From: Promethearchaeota archaeon
Lineage (GTDB): Archaea; Asgardarchaeota; Lokiarchaeia; Sigyniarchaeales; SOKP01
NCBI GenBank assembly: GCA_048941285.1
Contig: JBHLNS010000001.1
Coordinates: 96,001-160,000 of the forward strand
Length of the DNA: 64,000 nucleotides
Direction of reading: 5' to 3'
The translations under genes and the position numbers were made by a program. How positions within the stretch are numbered: position 1 is the stretch's first letter; every line of letters begins with the position of its first letter. The notes below the pieces were generated by a model. The model was not told the origin of the DNA and searched no databases. It worked only from the letters and a program-made list of their open reading frames with translations. Positions 2,131 to 50,437 of this stretch are shown here, piece by piece.

Positions 2131-5124
2131 ATGAGTTATACGTTTTCAAGAACAAAAATGATTGAAAAGATCAAGTTTGGACTTCTAAGCCCTGATGAAA
2201 TCCGAAAAATGTCAGCAGCCCGTATTATAACTGCTGATACATATGATGAAGATGGATTACCTATACCATCTGGATTAATGGACCAACGATTAGGTACCAT
2301 CGAACCTGGGCAACGTTGTCAAACTTGTGGGAATTTAGTAAGTAACTGTATGGGCCATTTCGGGCATTGTTAGAAACAATTAGATTCTAACGCCTAAATC
2401 GAATTAGCCCGTCCAGTTATTCATGTAGGTTATGCTAAAAAAGTCTTAAAAGTTTTACGTAGTATTTGTCCAGAATGTTCACGTTTGATGCTTACAGAGG
2501 AGGAAAAAGAGAAATTTAGAGTAGAACAAGTTAAACACCGAAAAATCTTTTTTGAAGGAGATGAAGACGCGGCAAAAATTGTCTTTAAACGAGCAAGAAA
2601 AGCAAAAAATTGCCCTTATTGCGAGGCAAAAAAGAAAAAAATAATTATTGAAAAGCCGACAACTTTTTATGAGGAAGAAGAAGGGAAAGGTTCACGGAGA
2701 ATAACTCCTATTGAAATATTAGAACGATTAAAAAAGATGAGTGATGTGGATCTTAGGATCCTTGGAATTTCTCCTGAAAATGCTCGTCTTGAATGGGTTG
2801 TTTTTACAGTTTTACCAATTCCCCCCGTATGTGCTAGACCCTCTATTACATTAGATAGTGGTATTCGATCTGAAGATGATTTAACACATAAATTAGTTGA
2901 CGTTATTAGAATTAACCAACGATTAAGAGAAAATATCGATGCTGGAGCACCTCATTTAATAGTCGAAGACCTGTGGGAGTTATTACAATATCATATTACA
3001 ACTTATTTTGATAATCAAGTATCTGGTATACCTCCTGCTAGACATCGATCCGGTAGAGCACTTAGAACCTTAACTCAGAGATTAAAAGGTAAGGAGGGAA
3101 GATTTAGAAGTAACTTGAGTGGAAAACGAGTCGATTTCTCTGCCCGTAGTGTAATATCCCCAAATCCTTATATTAGTATTAATGAGGTTGGTGTTCCAAT
3201 TGAAATCGCAAAAATTTTAACTATACCTACCAATGTTAATGATTGGAATATTGAAGAAATGAAACAGATGGTTTTGAATGGGCCTTTTAAACACCCTGGA
3301 GCAAATTATATTATAAGAAATGATCGTAGAAGAATTGACCTGCGATATGTCAAAAATCGGAAGATTATAGCTGACATGCTTGCTCCAGGTTTTACAATTG
3401 AGCGCCATTTAAATAATGGAGATTTAGTATTATTTAATCGCCAACCATCTCTTCATAGAATGTCGATAATGGCTCATGAAGTAAAAATAATGAAAGGAAG
3501 AACATTCCGGTTAAACCTAACAGTATGCCCGCCATATAATGCTGATTTTGACGGAGATGAAATGAACCTTCACGTACCTCAAAGCGAGGAAGCCCGTACA
3601 GAAGCAGAGCTATTGCTAAAAGTTCAAGAACATATACTGTCTCCAAGATTTGGTGGGCCAATATTAGGTGGTATTCAAGATTTTATTTCAAGCGTATTCC
3701 AATTTACAAGTAAAGAGTCTGTATACACTAAAAAGGATACTTTAAAATTGTTATATACTGGAGATGTATTTAAAAACAATCCTAAATTTAGCTTGGATCA
3801 ACTAACTCCTGTGTTATTTGACCCAGAACCAATGTATTCTGGAAAAGATATCTTCAGTACTTTATTTCCAGATGATCTAAATATTAAAGTTAAATCAAAA
3901 TTTTGTAAAAAATGTAAGGTATGTGAAAAAGAAGATTGCCCCTATGATGCTTATGTTGTAATAAAAAATGGAAATTTAATTACTGGAACTATTGATGAGA
4001 ATTCTTTTGGAGCTATGCAATCAAACAGTATTTTACAACGTATTATTAAGGATCATGGTAACGCACGAGGAAGAATATTCTTAGACAGTGCAACCAAGAT
4101 GCTATTATATGTTATTCGACAGAATGGAATGACAATGGGATTGGATGAAGTATATGTCCATGGTCATGCTTATGAAGCAATCCAAAAAATATTAGAAGAA
4201 GCAAATAAAGAATCTGAAAAATTAATTAACGCATTTTATGAAAATGATACAAAAATTCTTAGAAGAGCTCCTGGTCGTTCAATGAGGGAAACTTTAGAGT
4301 TAAGAATCCGCCAAGTATTGGCAGAAGCTAGAAAAAAAGCAGAAGAAACAGCAGCAGAATTCATTGGAGATGAAGCTCATTCTGTCATTATGACTAAATC
4401 TGGAGCTAGAGGTAATATATTAAATCTTGGACAGATGTCTGCTGTAGTAGGACAACAAGCAATTAGAGGAGAAAGAATTAATAGAGGATATAGTATGAGA
4501 ACGCTCCCTCATTTTAAAATTAATGATTTATCCCCTAAATCGCGAGGTTTTGTTTCTTCATCTTATAGAAATGGATTAAAACCAGAAGAATTCTTTTTTC
4601 ATGCTATGGGAGGAAGAGAAGGATTAGTAGATACAGCTGTAAGAACATCCACATCTGGATATATGCAACGTAGATTGGTAAATGCATTACAGGATATGGT
4701 TGTTGAAAATGATGGCACTGTTCGAAATTCTGATAAAAATATAATCCAGTTCTGTTTTGGAGATGACGGCATTGATGCAATGCACACTGATCATGGTGCT
4801 GCGGTGAACTTGGACGTTTTGTTATTAAAAGCAAAAGCTCTAAATGTTAATGAAGTGCGTGAAGAGATTAAAAAGGGCACTTCAACAAAAAAACTTGAAC
4901 CTAAGAAAAAAGATGAATCTAAGAAAAAAGATGAATCTAAGAAAAAAGATGAATCTAAGAAAAAAATAGCAGAAGAACCTAAATCTGAAGCAGAACCTGA
5001 AAAAGAAGAATTAGATGAAGATTTTTTAAAACAACAATTTGAACAAGAAACTGGGAAAAATGCAGTTTGGCGTGGTAAAGAAACCAATGCATACCTAGAA
5101 TGGAAAGAAAAAAGAATAAAATAA
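2131..5124 (+). CDS. rpoA1: DNA-directed RNA polymerase subunit A' (Rpo1N), join(2131..2367,2398..5124), about 987 aa after removal of a 30-nt intron
   Basis: [35 protein letters not shown]|[34 protein letters not shown]; the ORFs at 2131 and 2485 are in the same frame, separated only by stops inside the insert. Confidence 0.97.
2368..2397 (+). other. Putative BHB/BHL (tRNA-type) mRNA intron in rpoA'
   Basis: Helix GGGC(2362-65)/GCCT(2392-95), bulges AT^T(2366-68) and AA^A(2396-98), inner stem GTTAGAA/TTCTAAC with 9-nt loop; contains in-frame TAG and TAA; removal gives GGG CAT ATC GAA (G-H-I-E). Confidence 0.88.
4903..4965 (+). repeat. 18-bp coding tandem repeat (AAGAAAAAAGATGAATCT x3.5; KKKDES) in the rpoA' C-terminal tail
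   Basis: Identical units start at 4903, 4921 and 4939, with a partial unit at 4957. Confidence 0.95.
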
Positions 5125-44999: not shown

Positions 45000-46457
45000 A
45001 TGGCTACTATAAATGATATTTTAAGTGAAGTATTAAAAGAGATTACGCCAACAAGTCAAGAAATTGATCGAATCAATCAGATTTCTAAAAATCTTGAACA
45101 ATTACTAGATAAAAAAGCTAAAGAGTTGAAAATTAAATATAATAAAATTGAACCTCAAGGATCAACTGGAATTAAACAAACACAGGTAAAAAATGATTTT
45201 GATATCGATCTCTTTATAGGATTAGACTATAATCAATATAAACCAAAATATAAGGGTTTGAGTAAAAGCAAATTAAAAAAAAAATCAAAAAAAGATTTTT
45301 TGGCGTTATGCAATAAATGGATTCTCCAAAGTCTTACACTAAATGAATTCCATAATCCTCGCCTCTTATATGCAGAGCATCCGTATGTAACAGTAGATTA
45401 CATTTTAAAAAATATAAAAATTAAGGTCGATATTGTTTTATATTTTGATTTAGAGTTAGAATATATTAAGGAACATGGACCTATTACTGCAGTTGACAGA
45501 TCCCCTTGGCATGGCTACTTTGTCAGAGATAAATTAGATCCTAAACAAAAGAATGATGTAAGGCTTTTAAAGCAATTCTTTAAAGCTTGTTATAGTTATG
45601 GTGATAAAAGCGCCGTAGGCAGAGTTGGTTTTATTGGATATAGTGCTGAATTATTAATTTATTATTTTAACGATTTTATTACTTTATTTGAGAATTTTAC
45701 TGAATTAGACAAGAAACCACTAGATTATTATCACAGAAATAAGGATGAATTAAATAAAATTGTTCACTTTCAAAATGATTATCTTATTATTGTAGATCCA
45801 ATAGATAAGAATCGAAATGTTGCGTCTGCAATATCCGATAGAGCATTTAAATATTGTAATCAGAAAATAAATGAATTCTTAGAACATCCAAGCATAGAAT
45901 TTTTTGAACTTAAACCAATACCCGAAGTTGATTTATCTAATAAAGATGATCCTCTCCTTTCGAAAATTTATATTATTGAATTACAGAATATTGATTATGA
46001 TCTCCATTATACTATTAATAGAGATAAATTATATTCTCTGGGAGAAGGCATTAAAGCTAATGGAGAAAAAGAATTTTCTCATGTAGATCGCTTTGGAACA
46101 ATTATATTTGAAGTATACTTCGAAGATGATAAGAATCAGTATAATATAGCCATTTTTTGCGAAAAACCTCAAATAGATGAATCTTATATTCGCAAAGGAC
46201 CTCCCATGACAGAAGAAAGACACGTTGTTAATTTCCAAAAAAAAAATCCAAAATATTTTGAAAGGAACGGTCATTTATGGGTAGAAACTGTCAGAGATTT
46301 TAATAATTTCTCTGATTTTTTAAAAGAATTTGTTAAAGATAAAATTCCTGATAATTTTAATATTAAAAATATCTCGACTGCATTTCAAACCCGTAGTTCT
46401 TCGGGGAAAAAAACAATAAATATATTGAGAAATATTATTTTGCCTCTTTATATTTAA
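45000..46457 (+). CDS. cca: Archaeal (class I) CCA-adding enzyme
   Basis: GS...TQ...D.DIDLF, YAEHPY, TAVDRSPWH, VRLLKQF, DPIDKNRNVASA. Confidence 0.85.
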   Translation: MATINDILSEVLKEITPTSQEIDRINQISKNLEQLLDKKAKELKIKYNKIEPQGSTGIKQTQVKNDFDIDLFIGLDYNQYKPKYKGLSKSKLKKKSKKDFLALCNKWILQSLTLNEFHNPRLLYAEHPYVTVDYILKNIKIKVDIVLYFDLELEYIKEHGPITAVDRSPWHGYFVRDKLDPKQKNDVRLLKQFFKACYSYGDKSAVGRVGFIGYSAELLIYYFNDFITLFENFTELDKKPLDYYHRNKDELNKIVHFQNDYLIIVDPIDKNRNVASAISDRAFKYCNQKINEFLEHPSIEFFELKPIPEVDLSNKDDPLLSKIYIIELQNIDYDLHYTINRDKLYSLGEGIKANGEKEFSHVDRFGTIIFEVYFEDDKNQYNIAIFCEKPQIDESYIRKGPPMTEERHVVNFQKKNPKYFERNGHLWVETVRDFNNFSDFLKEFVKDKIPDNFNIKNISTAFQTRSSSGKKTINILRNIILPLYI

Positions 46458-46543
46458 ATTCATAAAATTTTTATGATTTCCCGAATTCTTTTCCATAATT
46501 ATAACATGAGAATTTAATTTAATACATACGACGTGAACTAAAT

Positions 46544-48826
46544 ATGGTTAAAGTGAAAAACCCAGAAGAAATCGCTAAACTAGTAACTTCTGGTTCATAT
46601 GAGAAGAAGAGAATATTTTCAATCACAGCTCATATAGATCATGGCAAAACAACTGCCACAGATTATCTTCTTCGAAGAGCAGGATTAATGAGACCTGAAG
46701 ACGCTGGCCAGCTCCAAATGACAGATTCAGATTTAGATTAAGGCTTACTTGATCTACTGAAAGATGAGGAGCAGGAACGAGGCATCACGATCTTCACAAG
46801 TGTAGTCTTACTTGCATTCAACGATCCAAGAAAACCAAAAGATGACGAACCTTATATTATACAACTGAATGACACTCCTGGTCACATAAGCTTTACCGGA
46901 GAGGTATCCCGAGCCCTTAGAGGTTCAGATGGTGCTATAGTATTAGTGGATGCTCTTGAGGGGGTCATGACTCAAACAGAAACTAATATAAGGTTATCTG
47001 TTGGTGAAGAATACTGTAAACCTGTCCTTTTTATAAATAAGGTCGATAGATTGATTAGCGAATTAAAACTCAGTCCTCAAGATACTTTTGCAAAAATCGA
47101 CAAAATTACTAGAGAAGTCAATGATTTGATAAAAAAAGTAAGACCAGAAGGGTCGGATTGGAGTATAGATTTTGCGAAAAATTCCGTTGCAGTTGGTTCA
47201 GCTAAACATGGGTGGGGTTTCACTTATGAAATTTTACTTGAAAAGGGTTTGAAACCTCAAGATGTTTTTGCTAAATACAATGAAGGGGATATTCAATGGT
47301 TAAGAGATAATTTACCCCTAGATGAACCAATGTTAAGAATGATCGTAGATCATCTCCCAGATCCTATTACCGCTGCGAAGTATAGAATACCACATATATG
47401 GGGTGGTGATTTAAACTCAGAGCTAGGGCAATCTCTTATAAGGAGTGACCCAAAAGGAAAATTGTATGGGATGATTACAAAAATTTTCCTAGATCCAAAA
47501 AGAAATTATCAAGCTACACTTATAGGCCGCGTTTTTTCGGGTACTTTTGATCAAAGCGATACACTGTATCTTATTAACAGTGATTCTCAAAGTCGAGTGA
47601 AGAGACTTGGAGTCATGGAAATTACAGATATTTTAGATATTCCAAAGATTCCCGCGGGTAATCTATTTGCATTATATGGATTCATTTCTCCATCTGGAGA
47701 AACTTTCATTAACGCAAATGATGTACCTAAAGATAAAGAGGAAAAGAAGAGAATTCCTTCTTTTGAAAAAATACATTACGCTTGTGAAGCTGTTGTTTCC
47801 AGAAGTATCAAACCAAAAGATCCACATGATATTGATAAATTAGATGAAGTTGTATCCAAATGGTTAAAAGCAGATCCGACAGCAGAATACAGAAGAGATG
47901 AAGAATCAGGAGAATTTATTTTATCGGGAATTGATCCATTACAAATAGAGATTTTAGTTAAGAGGATAAACAATCAAGTCCAAATTAATATTGGAGAACC
48001 AATTATCGTTTATAGAGAAAAAATTACTCAAAAAAGTCCTGATTTTTATACAAAATCTGCGAATACACATAATCGTATCTTATTATATATTGAACCCCTG
48101 GATGAAACTACTGAGCGGTTAATCGAAACTGGTAAAGTAAATGATTTACAAAATGAGAAAGAAAGAGCTCAAATTCTTAGAGAAGAAGCTGGATGGGATG
48201 CTAAAGAAGCAAGAAGAATTGTTGATTTATATCATGGAAGCGTTCTTGTAAATGGTACCTCTGGATTACAGAGATTCGATCGTGTTAAATCTTATTTAAG
48301 TGCTGCTTTTAGGGATTGGCTTGGTGATTGTATACTTGCAAAAGAGCCTGCTGCTGGAATTAAAGTCGTATTCACAGATATGACAATACATGAGGATACC
48401 AGACATACGTCTTATGGTCAGATTGCAGGAATGTTCTTCTCAGCCGTTTCTTTAGCTATGTTAGATGCAAAACCACATCTATTTGAGCCAATCCAGAGAA
48501 TAGATATAAAATCACCACAAGGAACAGAAGGAAGTGTAAGTACTATTATTACAAAACGCCGAGGTCGGATTACTAACGTTATTCCCGAAGGAGAATATGT
48601 GAGGATTCAAGGTCAGATTCCAGCAGCAGAGACAATAGGACTTGCTGACGATATTAGAGGCTCAACAGCCGGAAGGGCATTTTTTGGTTATGAATTCTTA
48701 GGATTTGAAAAAGTTCCTCCCAATCTTGAAGAAGATATCATTATGGAAATTCGCAGAAGGAAAGGTATGCCATTAGAATTACCTAATAGAAAGAGTTGGG
48801 AGAGATTTATTTACAAAAGAACCTAA
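46544..48826 (+). CDS. fusA: Elongation factor 2 (aEF-2 family), join(46544..46732,46763..48826), about 750 aa after intron removal
   Basis: AHIDHGKTT, TDSD|DEEQERGITI, NDTPGH, NKVDRL, EPIIVYRE, RGSTAGRA; both ORF pieces are in one frame. Confidence 0.95.
46733..46762 (+). other. Putative BHB (tRNA-type) mRNA intron in EF-2
   Basis: Helix TCAG(46727-30)/CTGA(46757-60), bulges AT^T(46731-33) and AA^G(46761-63), inner stem TAGATTAAG/CTTGATCTA with loop GCTTA; in-frame TAA; removal gives TCA GAT GAT GAG (S-D-D-E). Confidence 0.9.
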
Positions 48827-49104: not shown

Positions 49105-49668
49105 CTAAGAGAAACTAGAGATTTTAGCAATCATATATAGTTTTTTAACAAGAGCTTTAAACGCATCAGAAACTCCTTGCCCTGTTAAAGCACTCGTTTT
49201 ATAATATCCAATAAATCTATTATCTTTAGCTAATTGTTCAACATTTGCATCAGAAGTAGTTTTATTTGGATCTGATGCTAATTGTCCATCATCAACTAAA
49301 TCTACTTTATTTCCAAAAAGTATTATTGGAATATTTCCACAATATATTTTAAGATCATTAAACCATCTATTAACATGAGTATAACTCTCAGTTTGATCTG
49401 GAGCGTGAGAAAAAACTATTATTGCACCACTACTTCCAATATAGAATCTTTGACGTAGTGCTTGAAATGAATCCTGCCCAGCAATATCCCAAAGAAACAA
49501 ACTAATCTTCTCTCCATCAATTTCCTCTTCGTATTTAGAGAATTGTGTTCCTAAGGTTGATATATATTCTTTTTGAAAGGATCCTTGAGTATATTTTTTA
49601 ATCAATGATGTTTTACCAACAGCTCCATCACCAATGACGCAAATTTTAAATCCGTATCCGTCGCTCAT
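49105..49668 (-). CDS. Rab/Ras-like small GTPase
   Basis: GDGAVGKTS, YISTLG, WDIAGQ, GNKVD, TSA. Confidence 0.93.
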   Translation of the reverse strand: MSDGYGFKICVIGDGAVGKTSLIKKYTQGSFQKEYISTLGTQFSKYEEEIDGEKISLFLWDIAGQDSFQALRQRFYIGSSGAIIVFSHAPDQTESYTHVNRWFNDLKIYCGNIPIILFGNKVDLVDDGQLASDPNKTTSDANVEQLAKDNRFIGYYKTSALTGQGVSDAFKALVKKLYMIAKISSFS

Positions 49669-49879: not shown

Positions 49880-50437
49880 CTATCTTGTAGCTCTATGGTA
49901 TAATTTTCTTACTAATGTTTGAAAACCTTCTTGAACTCCTTGACCTGTTAAAGCACTCGTCCTGAGATATTCATTAATATTATGATCTTGAGCAAATTTC
50001 TGAACATGAACATCTGAAGTTTCGTAATCTGGACTTGAAGCTATTGCATTTTGATCAACTAAATCAGCTTTATTACCAAATAAAATTATTGGTATCCTCC
50101 CACAAGCTTCTTTAATATGTGATAACCATTTATCAATATTACGATAAGTTTCAATTTCTTCAGGAGCAAGAGAAAAGACGATAATAGCACCACTACTTCC
50201 TTTGTAAAATCTCTCACGTAGCGTAGCAAATGACTCTTGACCTGCTAAATCCCATAAGAATAGCTCAACCATTATTCCACTTATTTTTTCCTCGTACCTG
50301 GAGAATTGCATTCCTAATGTAGAAATATAATCTTTTTGAAATGTGTTTGTTGTATATCTTTTAATTAATGATGTTTTGCCAACGGCAGCATCCCCTACTA
50401 CAACAATTTTAAACCCAAAGGCTTTGTTGCTCATCAT
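49880..50437 (-). CDS. Rab/Ras-like small GTPase (tandem paralog)
   Basis: GDAAVGKTS, YISTLG, WDLAGQ, GNKAD, TSA. Confidence 0.93.
   Translation of the reverse strand: MMSNKAFGFKIVVVGDAAVGKTSLIKRYTTNTFQKDYISTLGMQFSRYEEKISGIMVELFLWDLAGQESFATLRERFYKGSSGAIIVFSLAPEEIETYRNIDKWLSHIKEACGRIPIILFGNKADLVDQNAIASSPDYETSDVHVQKFAQDHNINEYLRTSALTGQGVQEGFQTLVRKLYHRATR

Follow-up and report, generated by a model that had tools for sequence, protein, structure and literature searches.

How can a full-length elongation factor EF-2 be made from a gene that carries a stop codon in its switch I region? The question is raised by the EF-2 gene on the forward strand of a 64,000-nucleotide (nt) stretch from an Asgard archaeon, a Promethearchaeota archaeon (G000:C1:96001-160000; this whole stretch is called the window below). 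The genome comprises 3.55 Mb in 101 contigs and is 94% complete; in our labels G numbers denote genomes, C numbers contigs and L numbers loci, G000 being the genome of the window. Within this AT-rich DNA (G+C 27-32%) the EF-2 frame starts at 46544, meets a TAA at 46739-46741 and then runs on in the same frame to 48826. An original prediction, made from the letters of the window, placed the TAA in a 30-nt insert at 46733-46762, within the codons for switch I, and proposed this insert to be a bulge-helix-bulge (BHB) intron spliced from the mRNA. The insert, TTAGATTAAGGCTTACTTGATCTACTGAAA, and its stop codon lie exactly there, and we consider it highly likely, from the comparisons described below, that it is a 30-nt BHB intron in the pre-mRNA of a bona fide EF-2.

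The exact boundaries of the insert are established by comparison with related genes, a check that the original prediction had proposed. EF-2 was found in 53 of 54 genomes of the same genus; internal stops occur in 18 of these 53 orthologues, which are 27-57 nt longer than the rest. When the N-terminal parts of 51 orthologue regions were aligned, two insert positions appeared. At the first, termed site B, which is the switch I position of the window gene, 15 of the 51 carry a 30-nt insert, and the other 36 have a gap of exactly 30 columns, with TCAGAT (or a synonymous variant) joined directly to a codon beginning GA. The placement of the gap is unambiguous, as a shift of one base in either direction breaks the reading. 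The second, site A, lies in the P-loop, where 30 nt containing up to three different stops (TAG, TGA and TAA) separate AH from IDHGKT in four genomes (G017, G041, G069 and G042; loci L021, L052, L053 and L055); one of the four, G017, carries both inserts. No stops were found in the EF-2 orthologues of 16 genomes from other families of the order. In G024 the EF-2 paralogue had also been reported to have a TAA, which was rejected, being upstream of the start codon. At one further EF-2 locus, G061:C111 (L056), there are about 176 nt more than elsewhere and the protein match falls into two overlapping parts, perhaps through a duplication or an assembly problem.

Excision of 46733-46762 yields a switch I reading TDSDDEEQERGITI. 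According to the available text of PMC2738675, cbf5 introns are cut between the second and third residue of each bulge, and the same rule, used here, gives a junction TCAGAT-GAT that equals the sequence of the intronless orthologues. A second line of evidence comes from solved structures of archaeal EF-2 (aEF-2; 5h7j and 6q2d), which align with residues 18-750 of the window protein (E = 3.5e-154) and leave 10 residues unmatched, precisely the LDxGLLDLLK that stands between AGQLQMTDSD and DEEQERGITI. The spacing that cuts by the splicing endonuclease EndA were predicted to restore is thus the spacing seen both in the 36 intronless orthologues and in the structure alignment.

The RNA around the insert folds as a BHB. 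The minimum free energy fold of 46715-46775 (61 nt) has -13.1 kcal/mol and z = -2.26, with 3 of 200 shuffles folding equally well, and it contains the structure that had been described: the TCAG/CTGA central helix, the ATT and AAG bulges, a 9-bp stem and the GCTTA loop. The two 3-nt bulges thus lie on opposite strands and flank a 4-bp helix, as in EndA substrates. Two details of the described fold needed amendment, since the stem includes one G.U pair (T46739-G46751) and the outer AT/AT pairs, present in the window's own genome, are unconserved, being paired in just 50% of alignment cells across the 15 distinct rows of relatives. The central helix also gains one U-A pair in the ViennaRNA fold. 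Read from its 5' end, the intron has the layout 1+9+5+9+4+2 (bulge nt, stem, loop, stem, helix strand, bulge nt). With so weak an outer helix beside the bulge, relaxed BHB is a better name for the motif than strict BHB. The distal exon helix GCTCC/GGAGC, which closes the structure in a 131-nt fold, may substitute for the weak outer helix.

This structure is preserved among relatives by changes on both strands. Covariation was counted on 19 introns, forming 15 distinct rows, in which 90.7% of cells are paired vs 79.1% in shuffles; none of 500 shuffles reaches the observed value, although the sequences are related and shuffle controls overstate the significance. When the partners are slid by one to three columns, pairing falls to 32-40%. 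The central helix is paired in every row (100%) and the inner stem in 95.6% of cells. Changes on both sides affect six pairs, three of the four in the central helix (site A vs site B) and three in the inner stem. At site A the exon word GCGC faces GCGT of the intron, and at site B TCAG faces CTGA; therefore the 3' segment of the intron is complementary to whichever exon precedes it. Identity among 13 carriers of the site-B insert is 100% in the helix strand and 87.6% in the stems of the intron, against 65.9% in the loop and 57.5% at third codon positions of the same genes.

The host gene shows the marks of a working EF-2. Read through with an X at the stop, its 760 residues match the Pfam families GTP_EFTU, EFG_III, EFG_IV and EFG_C, with EF-G_D2 under its cut-off, and membership of the EF-2 family was also seen in a protein-family search. 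The best NCBIfam model, TIGR00490 for aEF-2, scores 613 bits (cut-off 738.45) with a query that still includes the 10-residue insert. The only other EF-2-family gene in the genome, G000:C66:75947-78067 (L002), encodes 729 residues that are 36% identical. We take the interrupted gene to be the organism's bona fide EF-2 because it keeps the diphthamide histidine, its HEDTRHTSYGQ aligning with HEDNVHRGPAQ of 5h7j (neighbouring residues are altered), and because the paralogue has no diphthamide loop. The genome fits the pattern of one true EF-2 and one paralogue described for Asgard archaea in the available text of PMC6143161. After in-silico removal of the inserts, no internal stops are left in 46 full-length EF-2 genes. 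The ratio of nonsynonymous to synonymous substitution (dN/dS) is 0.037-0.068 for intron-bearing pairs vs 0.036-0.039 for pairs that include intronless genes, at dS of at least 1 (G061 was left out), values that point to strong purifying selection on the host gene. Together with the single stop and the sole diphthamide histidine, they bear out the original view that this is not a decaying pseudogene.

The match to a BHB at this place exceeds chance. Strict compact BHB motifs number 753 in the 3.55-Mb genome, and just two restore a long frame upon removal, namely the EF-2 motif (70+687 codons) and a weak 31-nt match on C32. A scan for stop clusters gave a similar picture: 450 in-frame clusters are flanked by long open frames, 61 of them permit some BHB-like deletion, and among those 61 the only clean 30-nt cases with a compact 9-bp hairpin are the EF-2 insert and an insert in the gene for RNA polymerase subunit A' (RpoA'), which lies in the same window. 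The strict scan had missed the RpoA' insert, which is without an outer helix. Three looser scans were discarded as too noisy: one for BHB motifs on one strand of the window (576 motifs), a genome-wide one with 1058 'ORF-repairing' (open reading frame) candidates and one without the outer-helix rule (177 candidates). In most of these matches, adjacent genes are joined across the intergenic DNA between them. One 30-nt candidate, C3:1849-1878, was rejected as an intergenic junction in which three of the four helix pairs are G.U and a Shine-Dalgarno-like AGGGAG and an ATG lie inside.

A covariance model built on the 19 introns gave the same answer. In the window's own genome the EF-2 intron is its only convincing match, and across the genus it recovers the 15 site-B and 4 site-A introns plus one intergenic AT-rich match in G054. 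Matches on C98, C32, C33 and C10 were rejected, none of them being in an interrupted frame. The best of the model's matches outside EF-2 in this genome, G000:C98:5582-5625 (E = 0.008), marks the 3' end of an open frame with a BHB-flanked type of hairpin, and the frame itself is uninterrupted.

The original prediction had named an insert unsupported by reads as a reason for doubt. DNA contigs from two public runs contain the insert, and so do 15 separate assemblies, including a single-contig genome. The contigs of the two DNA runs (X1 record 2 and X2 record 13) contain the entire insert, with only 20 nt to its left (the bridging rule is 31 nt). The DNA runs hold the insert and variants of its loop, and the intronless form was not found in them at 90% similarity or more.

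The genome encodes the enzymes that such an intron would need. Two genes, on contigs C70 and C68, exceed the cut-off of the EndA family PF01974, their products having 198 and 201 residues; by eye, one has the Tyr/His/Lys pattern and the other is without the histidine of the catalytic site. A single gene for the ligase RtcB, on C69, scores 567.7 bits. This pair of paralogues, one lacking the histidine, suggests that EndA probably acts as an (alpha-beta)2 enzyme of the two, and the available text of PMC5829648 describes (alpha-beta)2 EndA with a broad-specificity loop in Asgard archaea. ARAGORN finds only 13 tRNAs, few for a genome that is 94% complete, and none of them in the window; seven have introns, two of these 30 nt long. 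Multiple or non-canonical introns probably conceal the bulk of the tRNA genes, and the genome fits the available parts of 10.64898/2026.10.13.758758 and PMC11291895, where Asgard lineages are described as intron-rich, with heavy and often unannotated interruption of tRNAs. The genome's own 30-nt tRNA-Glu intron was rejected as an internal control for the cut rule, its ARAGORN placement at 35/36 being ambiguous and its layout different.

On this basis a course of events can be proposed. The transcript of 46711-46772 would fold so that exon TCAG and intron CUGA form the 4-bp helix between the bulges AUU and AAG, capped by the 9-bp inner hairpin and weakly closed on the outside by two A-U pairs and the distal exon helix GCUCC/GGAGC. 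The splicing endonuclease, probably (alpha-beta)2 EndA assembled from the two paralogues, would cut after U46732 and after A46762, between the second and third residue of each bulge. RtcB would then ligate the exons to UCAGAU-GAUGAG, by which the stop is removed and the normal switch I restored, and the protein made from the spliced mRNA would span QMTDSDDEEQER at the junction. An unspliced transcript would give a 65-residue peptide only. The original proposal of an mRNA intron is supported by boundaries, covariation, host gene and the EndA and RtcB genes, from which we infer cleavage, ligation and the subunit make-up of the enzyme; any role of the intron beyond being tolerated would be a further step of the same kind. 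The coordinates of the elements involved are collected in Table 1.

Table 1. Coordinates, within the window, of the putative EF-2 intron, its structural elements, the flanking exons and the RpoA' insert
Feature	Position	Strand	Remarks
BHB intron (putative)	46733..46762	+	30 nt, phase 0, in-frame TAA 46739-41; absent to the base from 36 aligned orthologues
Central helix, 5' strand TCAG (exon)	46727..46730	+	pairs with 46757-46760; paired in 15/15 distinct rows
5' bulge ATT	46731..46733	+	predicted cut after T46732
Inner hairpin	46734..46756	+	9-bp stem 46734-42 / 46748-56; loop GCTTA 46743-47
Central helix, 3' strand CTGA (intron)	46757..46760	+	100% identical in 13 site-B carriers compared
3' bulge AAG	46761..46763	+	predicted cut after A46762
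Distal closing helix, 5' strand GCTCC (exon)	46711..46715	+	131-nt fold; pairs with 46768-46772
Distal closing helix, 3' strand GGAGC (exon)	46768..46772	+	131-nt fold; pairs with 46711-46715
EF-2 exon 1	46544..46732	+	63 codons; P-loop AHIDHGKT and start of switch I; ends ...TCA GAT; boundary from intronless orthologues
EF-2 exon 2	46763..48826	+	switch I DEEQERGITI through domains II-V; terminal stop TAA
RpoA' insert ('first' intron of the original prediction)	2368..2397	+	30 nt, layout 1+9+5+9+4+2, between GHFGH and IELARPV; gene 2131-5124

Just downstream of EF-2, on the reverse strand, lie two adjacent genes of about 186 residues (49105-49668 and 49880-50437) with small-GTPase motifs, GDGAVGKT and WDIAGQ, recognised by eye.

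Several observations weigh against splicing of the insert as a BHB intron, in addition to the relatedness of the sequences mentioned above. In two metatranscriptome runs (X19 and X20, searched as Logan contigs) four contigs each match the gene with 95-99% similarity from 46805 onward and leave 46400-46804 uncovered, so that splicing is a matter of inference. No exon-exon joint is listed in the four runs, two of DNA and two of RNA, the RNA contigs being without coverage of the intron. By themselves the fold's z-scores, -2.26 over 61 nt and -1.65 over 131 nt, are modest. By the 3' bulge the helix of the window gene is just 2 bp long, and in most relatives it is interrupted (the 50% of paired cells given above), so the structure, with its well-paired inner helix of 9 bp, falls short of the strict hBHBh' form, in which a helix also stands outside the bulges, and cleavage would then depend on an enzyme of broad specificity. 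Relaxed BHB motifs lacking one outer helix are listed as substrates of (alpha-beta)2 and epsilon2 EndA in the available text of PMC5829648. The high conservation of the intron could partly come from recent lateral spread instead of selection. The position of the intron matters as well: in archaea translation can begin on nascent RNA, and because of this an intron 189 nt into the frame must go quickly or many transcripts are wasted.

Among other explanations, removal at the RNA level by another nuclease and ligase, or by self-cleavage, instead of EndA and RtcB, draws on the weakness of the outer helix of the strict motif and on the fact that the part given to EndA and RtcB is read from sequence. 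We regard it as very unlikely, since two 3-nt bulges, a 4-bp helix and a junction between the second and third bulge residue are the signature of EndA substrates in the available text of PMC2738675, 30 nt is too short for a group I or group II intron, and EndA and RtcB are both encoded.

A mechanism without any RNA removal would be programmed translational bypassing of the type of phage T4 gene 60, in which ribosomes would take off at the GAT of 46730-46732, jump over both hairpin and stop, and come down on the GAT after the insert. The bypass in T4 gene 60 uses matched take-off and landing codons, and here too a GAT stands directly before and directly after the insert, with a stop within three codons of take-off and a stable hairpin in the gap. 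Landing on the downstream GAT, however, would leave the protein one Asp short of all intronless orthologues (TDSD-EEQ vs TDSDDEEQ). At site A take-off would be at CAT and the next match lies two codons into the exon, so that I-D would be lost from AHIDHGKT, and at the RpoA' site no matching landing codon follows. Bypassing also leaves the complementarity of exon and intron words at each site unexplained, and we see only the slimmest chance for it.

Even less can be said for an insert that is translated, the TAA being read through or recoded so that switch I of EF-2 would be longer by 10 residues. The insert is in frame and its length is a multiple of three, but TAA is the main stop codon, ending 36 of the 48 long frames of the window, EF-2 itself among them. 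Site-A inserts have up to three different stops and the RpoA' insert both TAG and TAA, substitutions preserve base pairs and not codons, and the alignment with solved EF-2 structures has no room for the insert; we give this explanation almost no credence. The same holds for a decaying pseudogene, a split gene or an assembly artefact, which might be suspected where gene callers would see a 65-aa and a 626-aa ORF and the aEF-2 model stays under its cut-off (613 against 738 bits), but which would have to accommodate the only EF-2 copy with a diphthamide loop, a dN/dS of about 0.04, one and the same lesion kept in 15 species with saturated synonymous sites (dS of at least 1) and followed by no further stop, a downstream ORF whose first start codon (46946) lies past the DTPGH motif, and an insert that is seen both in a single-contig genome and in contigs from two DNA runs.

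Splicing as a BHB intron is thus the reading that we carry forward, and the putative EF-2 intron does not stand alone: in all, 30-nt inserts with a common layout occupy no fewer than four sites in EF-2 and RpoA' of one Asgard genus. The insert in RpoA' had been noted first in the original prediction, and it does share the layout; it contains an in-frame TAG and TAA, and its helix is GGGC/GCCT. RpoA' was matched in 52 of the 54 genomes of the genus. At the same position two relatives (G069 and G045) have a 30-nt insert with the compensatory helix GGAC/GTCT, and in four (G059, G024, G021 and G043; L097-L100) this GHFGH-IEL site is occupied by something longer, of about 65 or about 85 nt. In another genome, G063, the contig ends at this site. 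A further 30-nt insert of the same layout occurs in G048 and G049 (L095 and L096) at another RpoA' site, after nt 127 in phase 1, where a perfect 9-bp stem (CTGAATTTT/AAAATTCAG) is accompanied by an internal TGA and a central helix with three of four pairs. All four EF-2 and RpoA' sites fall within the first 240 nt of the gene and within highly conserved motifs.

The site-B insert is scattered over the genus. On a gene tree of 45 EF-2 sequences, from which the insert regions and G061 were omitted, it requires at least nine changes between presence and absence, and forcing its carriers together costs 1346 log-likelihood units (approximately unbiased test, p = 2e-60, for a group that was named after the tree had been seen). 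The intron of G043 is identical to those of G001 and G050, the genes being in distant clades. Against its intronless sister G012, G043 shows four synonymous differences within the 12 nt that directly follow the intron, and the two then agree fully for about 70 nt. The exon flanks also go with the intron: the word GCTCC is present in 14 of 14 site-B carriers vs 3 of 36 others, and GCTCC together with GGAGC in 12 of 14 carriers vs none of 36 non-carriers, both words being synonymous exon states (CTC; GAG GAG). In all seven phylogenetically independent contrasts the exon words switch with the intron (sign test, p of about 0.016).

Two readings of these linked flanks stand as an either/or. Either the intron travels along with a little co-converted exon sequence, or an outer helix is maintained by selection wherever the intron is present, and both imply a functional RNA structure. 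The patchy distribution and the linked flanks point to repeated gain or loss by recombination. A bolder proposal would be a mobile family of fixed-layout 30-nt BHB mini-introns that colonises the most conserved motifs of essential Asgard information-processing genes (the P-loop and switch I of EF-2 and two sites in RpoA') and is passed from species to species, a short exon tract included, through homologous recombination. It is suggested by the identity of the intron in G043 with those in G001 and G050, by the nine or more changes on the tree and by the switching of the flanks in every contrast, and we hold it tentatively, at somewhat short of even confidence.

How unusual such an intron would be can be judged against known systems. 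Work by Watanabe in 2002 and by Yoshinari in 2006 reportedly described the BHB intron in the cbf5 pre-mRNA of Crenarchaeota. The cbf5 case resembles the present one in being a short intron in an archaeal protein gene with a relaxed BHB-like motif and predicted cuts between the second and third bulge residue, in its tie to a hetero-oligomeric splicing endonuclease, and in a patchy distribution within its lineage, with gain and loss. It differs in the genes and the lineage concerned, here EF-2 and RpoA' of Asgard archaea and not cbf5 of Crenarchaeota, and in that here each gene has at least two sites with a uniform 30-nt layout, the catalytic motifs that are interrupted are the best conserved ones (P-loop and switch I), and presence varies among species of one genus together with linked synonymous exon states. 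Spliced cDNA was sequenced for cbf5, whereas the EF-2 intron is known from DNA. In the available text of PMC2738675 (Yokobori 2009), the BHB intron of cbf5, which encodes a pseudouridine synthase, is placed in Desulfurococcales and Sulfolobales, and for BHB splicing of archaeal pre-mRNA the available text of PMC5829648 cites three cbf5 papers only. The literature that we searched, supplements and subscription papers excepted, held no archaeal mRNA BHB intron in Asgard archaea, EF-2 or RNA polymerase; it named only cbf5, and for Asgard archaea only tRNA introns. The EF-2 insert is real, and it is very probably a spliced BHB intron in EF-2 mRNA, of a kind that is known but nearly unique.

Archaeal pre-tRNA introns of the BHB type are said to be cut by EndA (Marck and Grosjean, 2003, reportedly). 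Pre-tRNA and pre-rRNA introns share with the EF-2 intron the geometry of the motif and the presumed enzymes, EndA and RtcB. They differ in that the EF-2 substrate is an mRNA, in which codons set limits to what the central helix can have as its exon strand, and a failure of splicing in EF-2 would truncate a protein instead of disabling an RNA. In eukaryotes, the splicing of HAC1 and XBP1 mRNA is regulatory and stress-induced. It resembles the EF-2 case as a spliceosome-independent cutting and ligation of a short mRNA intron by protein enzymes, through which the reading of the frame is changed, and it differs in having another family of endonuclease, another recognition motif and a regulatory role, one that for the EF-2 intron would be conjecture. 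The available text of PMC13149111 attributes HAC1 and XBP1 splicing to IRE1 and RtcB.

If the EF-2 and RpoA' inserts are spliced introns, the tally of known cases would be multiplied, with the additions falling in the lineage closest to eukaryotes. Gene callers would split or truncate essential markers, EF-2 and RpoA' both being used in phylogenomics. The genus would also offer a natural experiment, with carriers beside non-carriers, a pair of sites in each gene and variants of differing length, in which the arrival and loss of BHB introns, called an open question in the available part of 10.64898/2026.10.13.758758, could be studied. It would further make it possible to ask directly if mRNAs are co-transcriptional targets of archaeal EndA. 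Should the mobile family be real as well, the closest archaeal relatives of eukaryotes would hold a living population of protein-spliced introns in protein genes, and the output of their translation and transcription machinery may be tied to the capacity of the tRNA-splicing enzymes.

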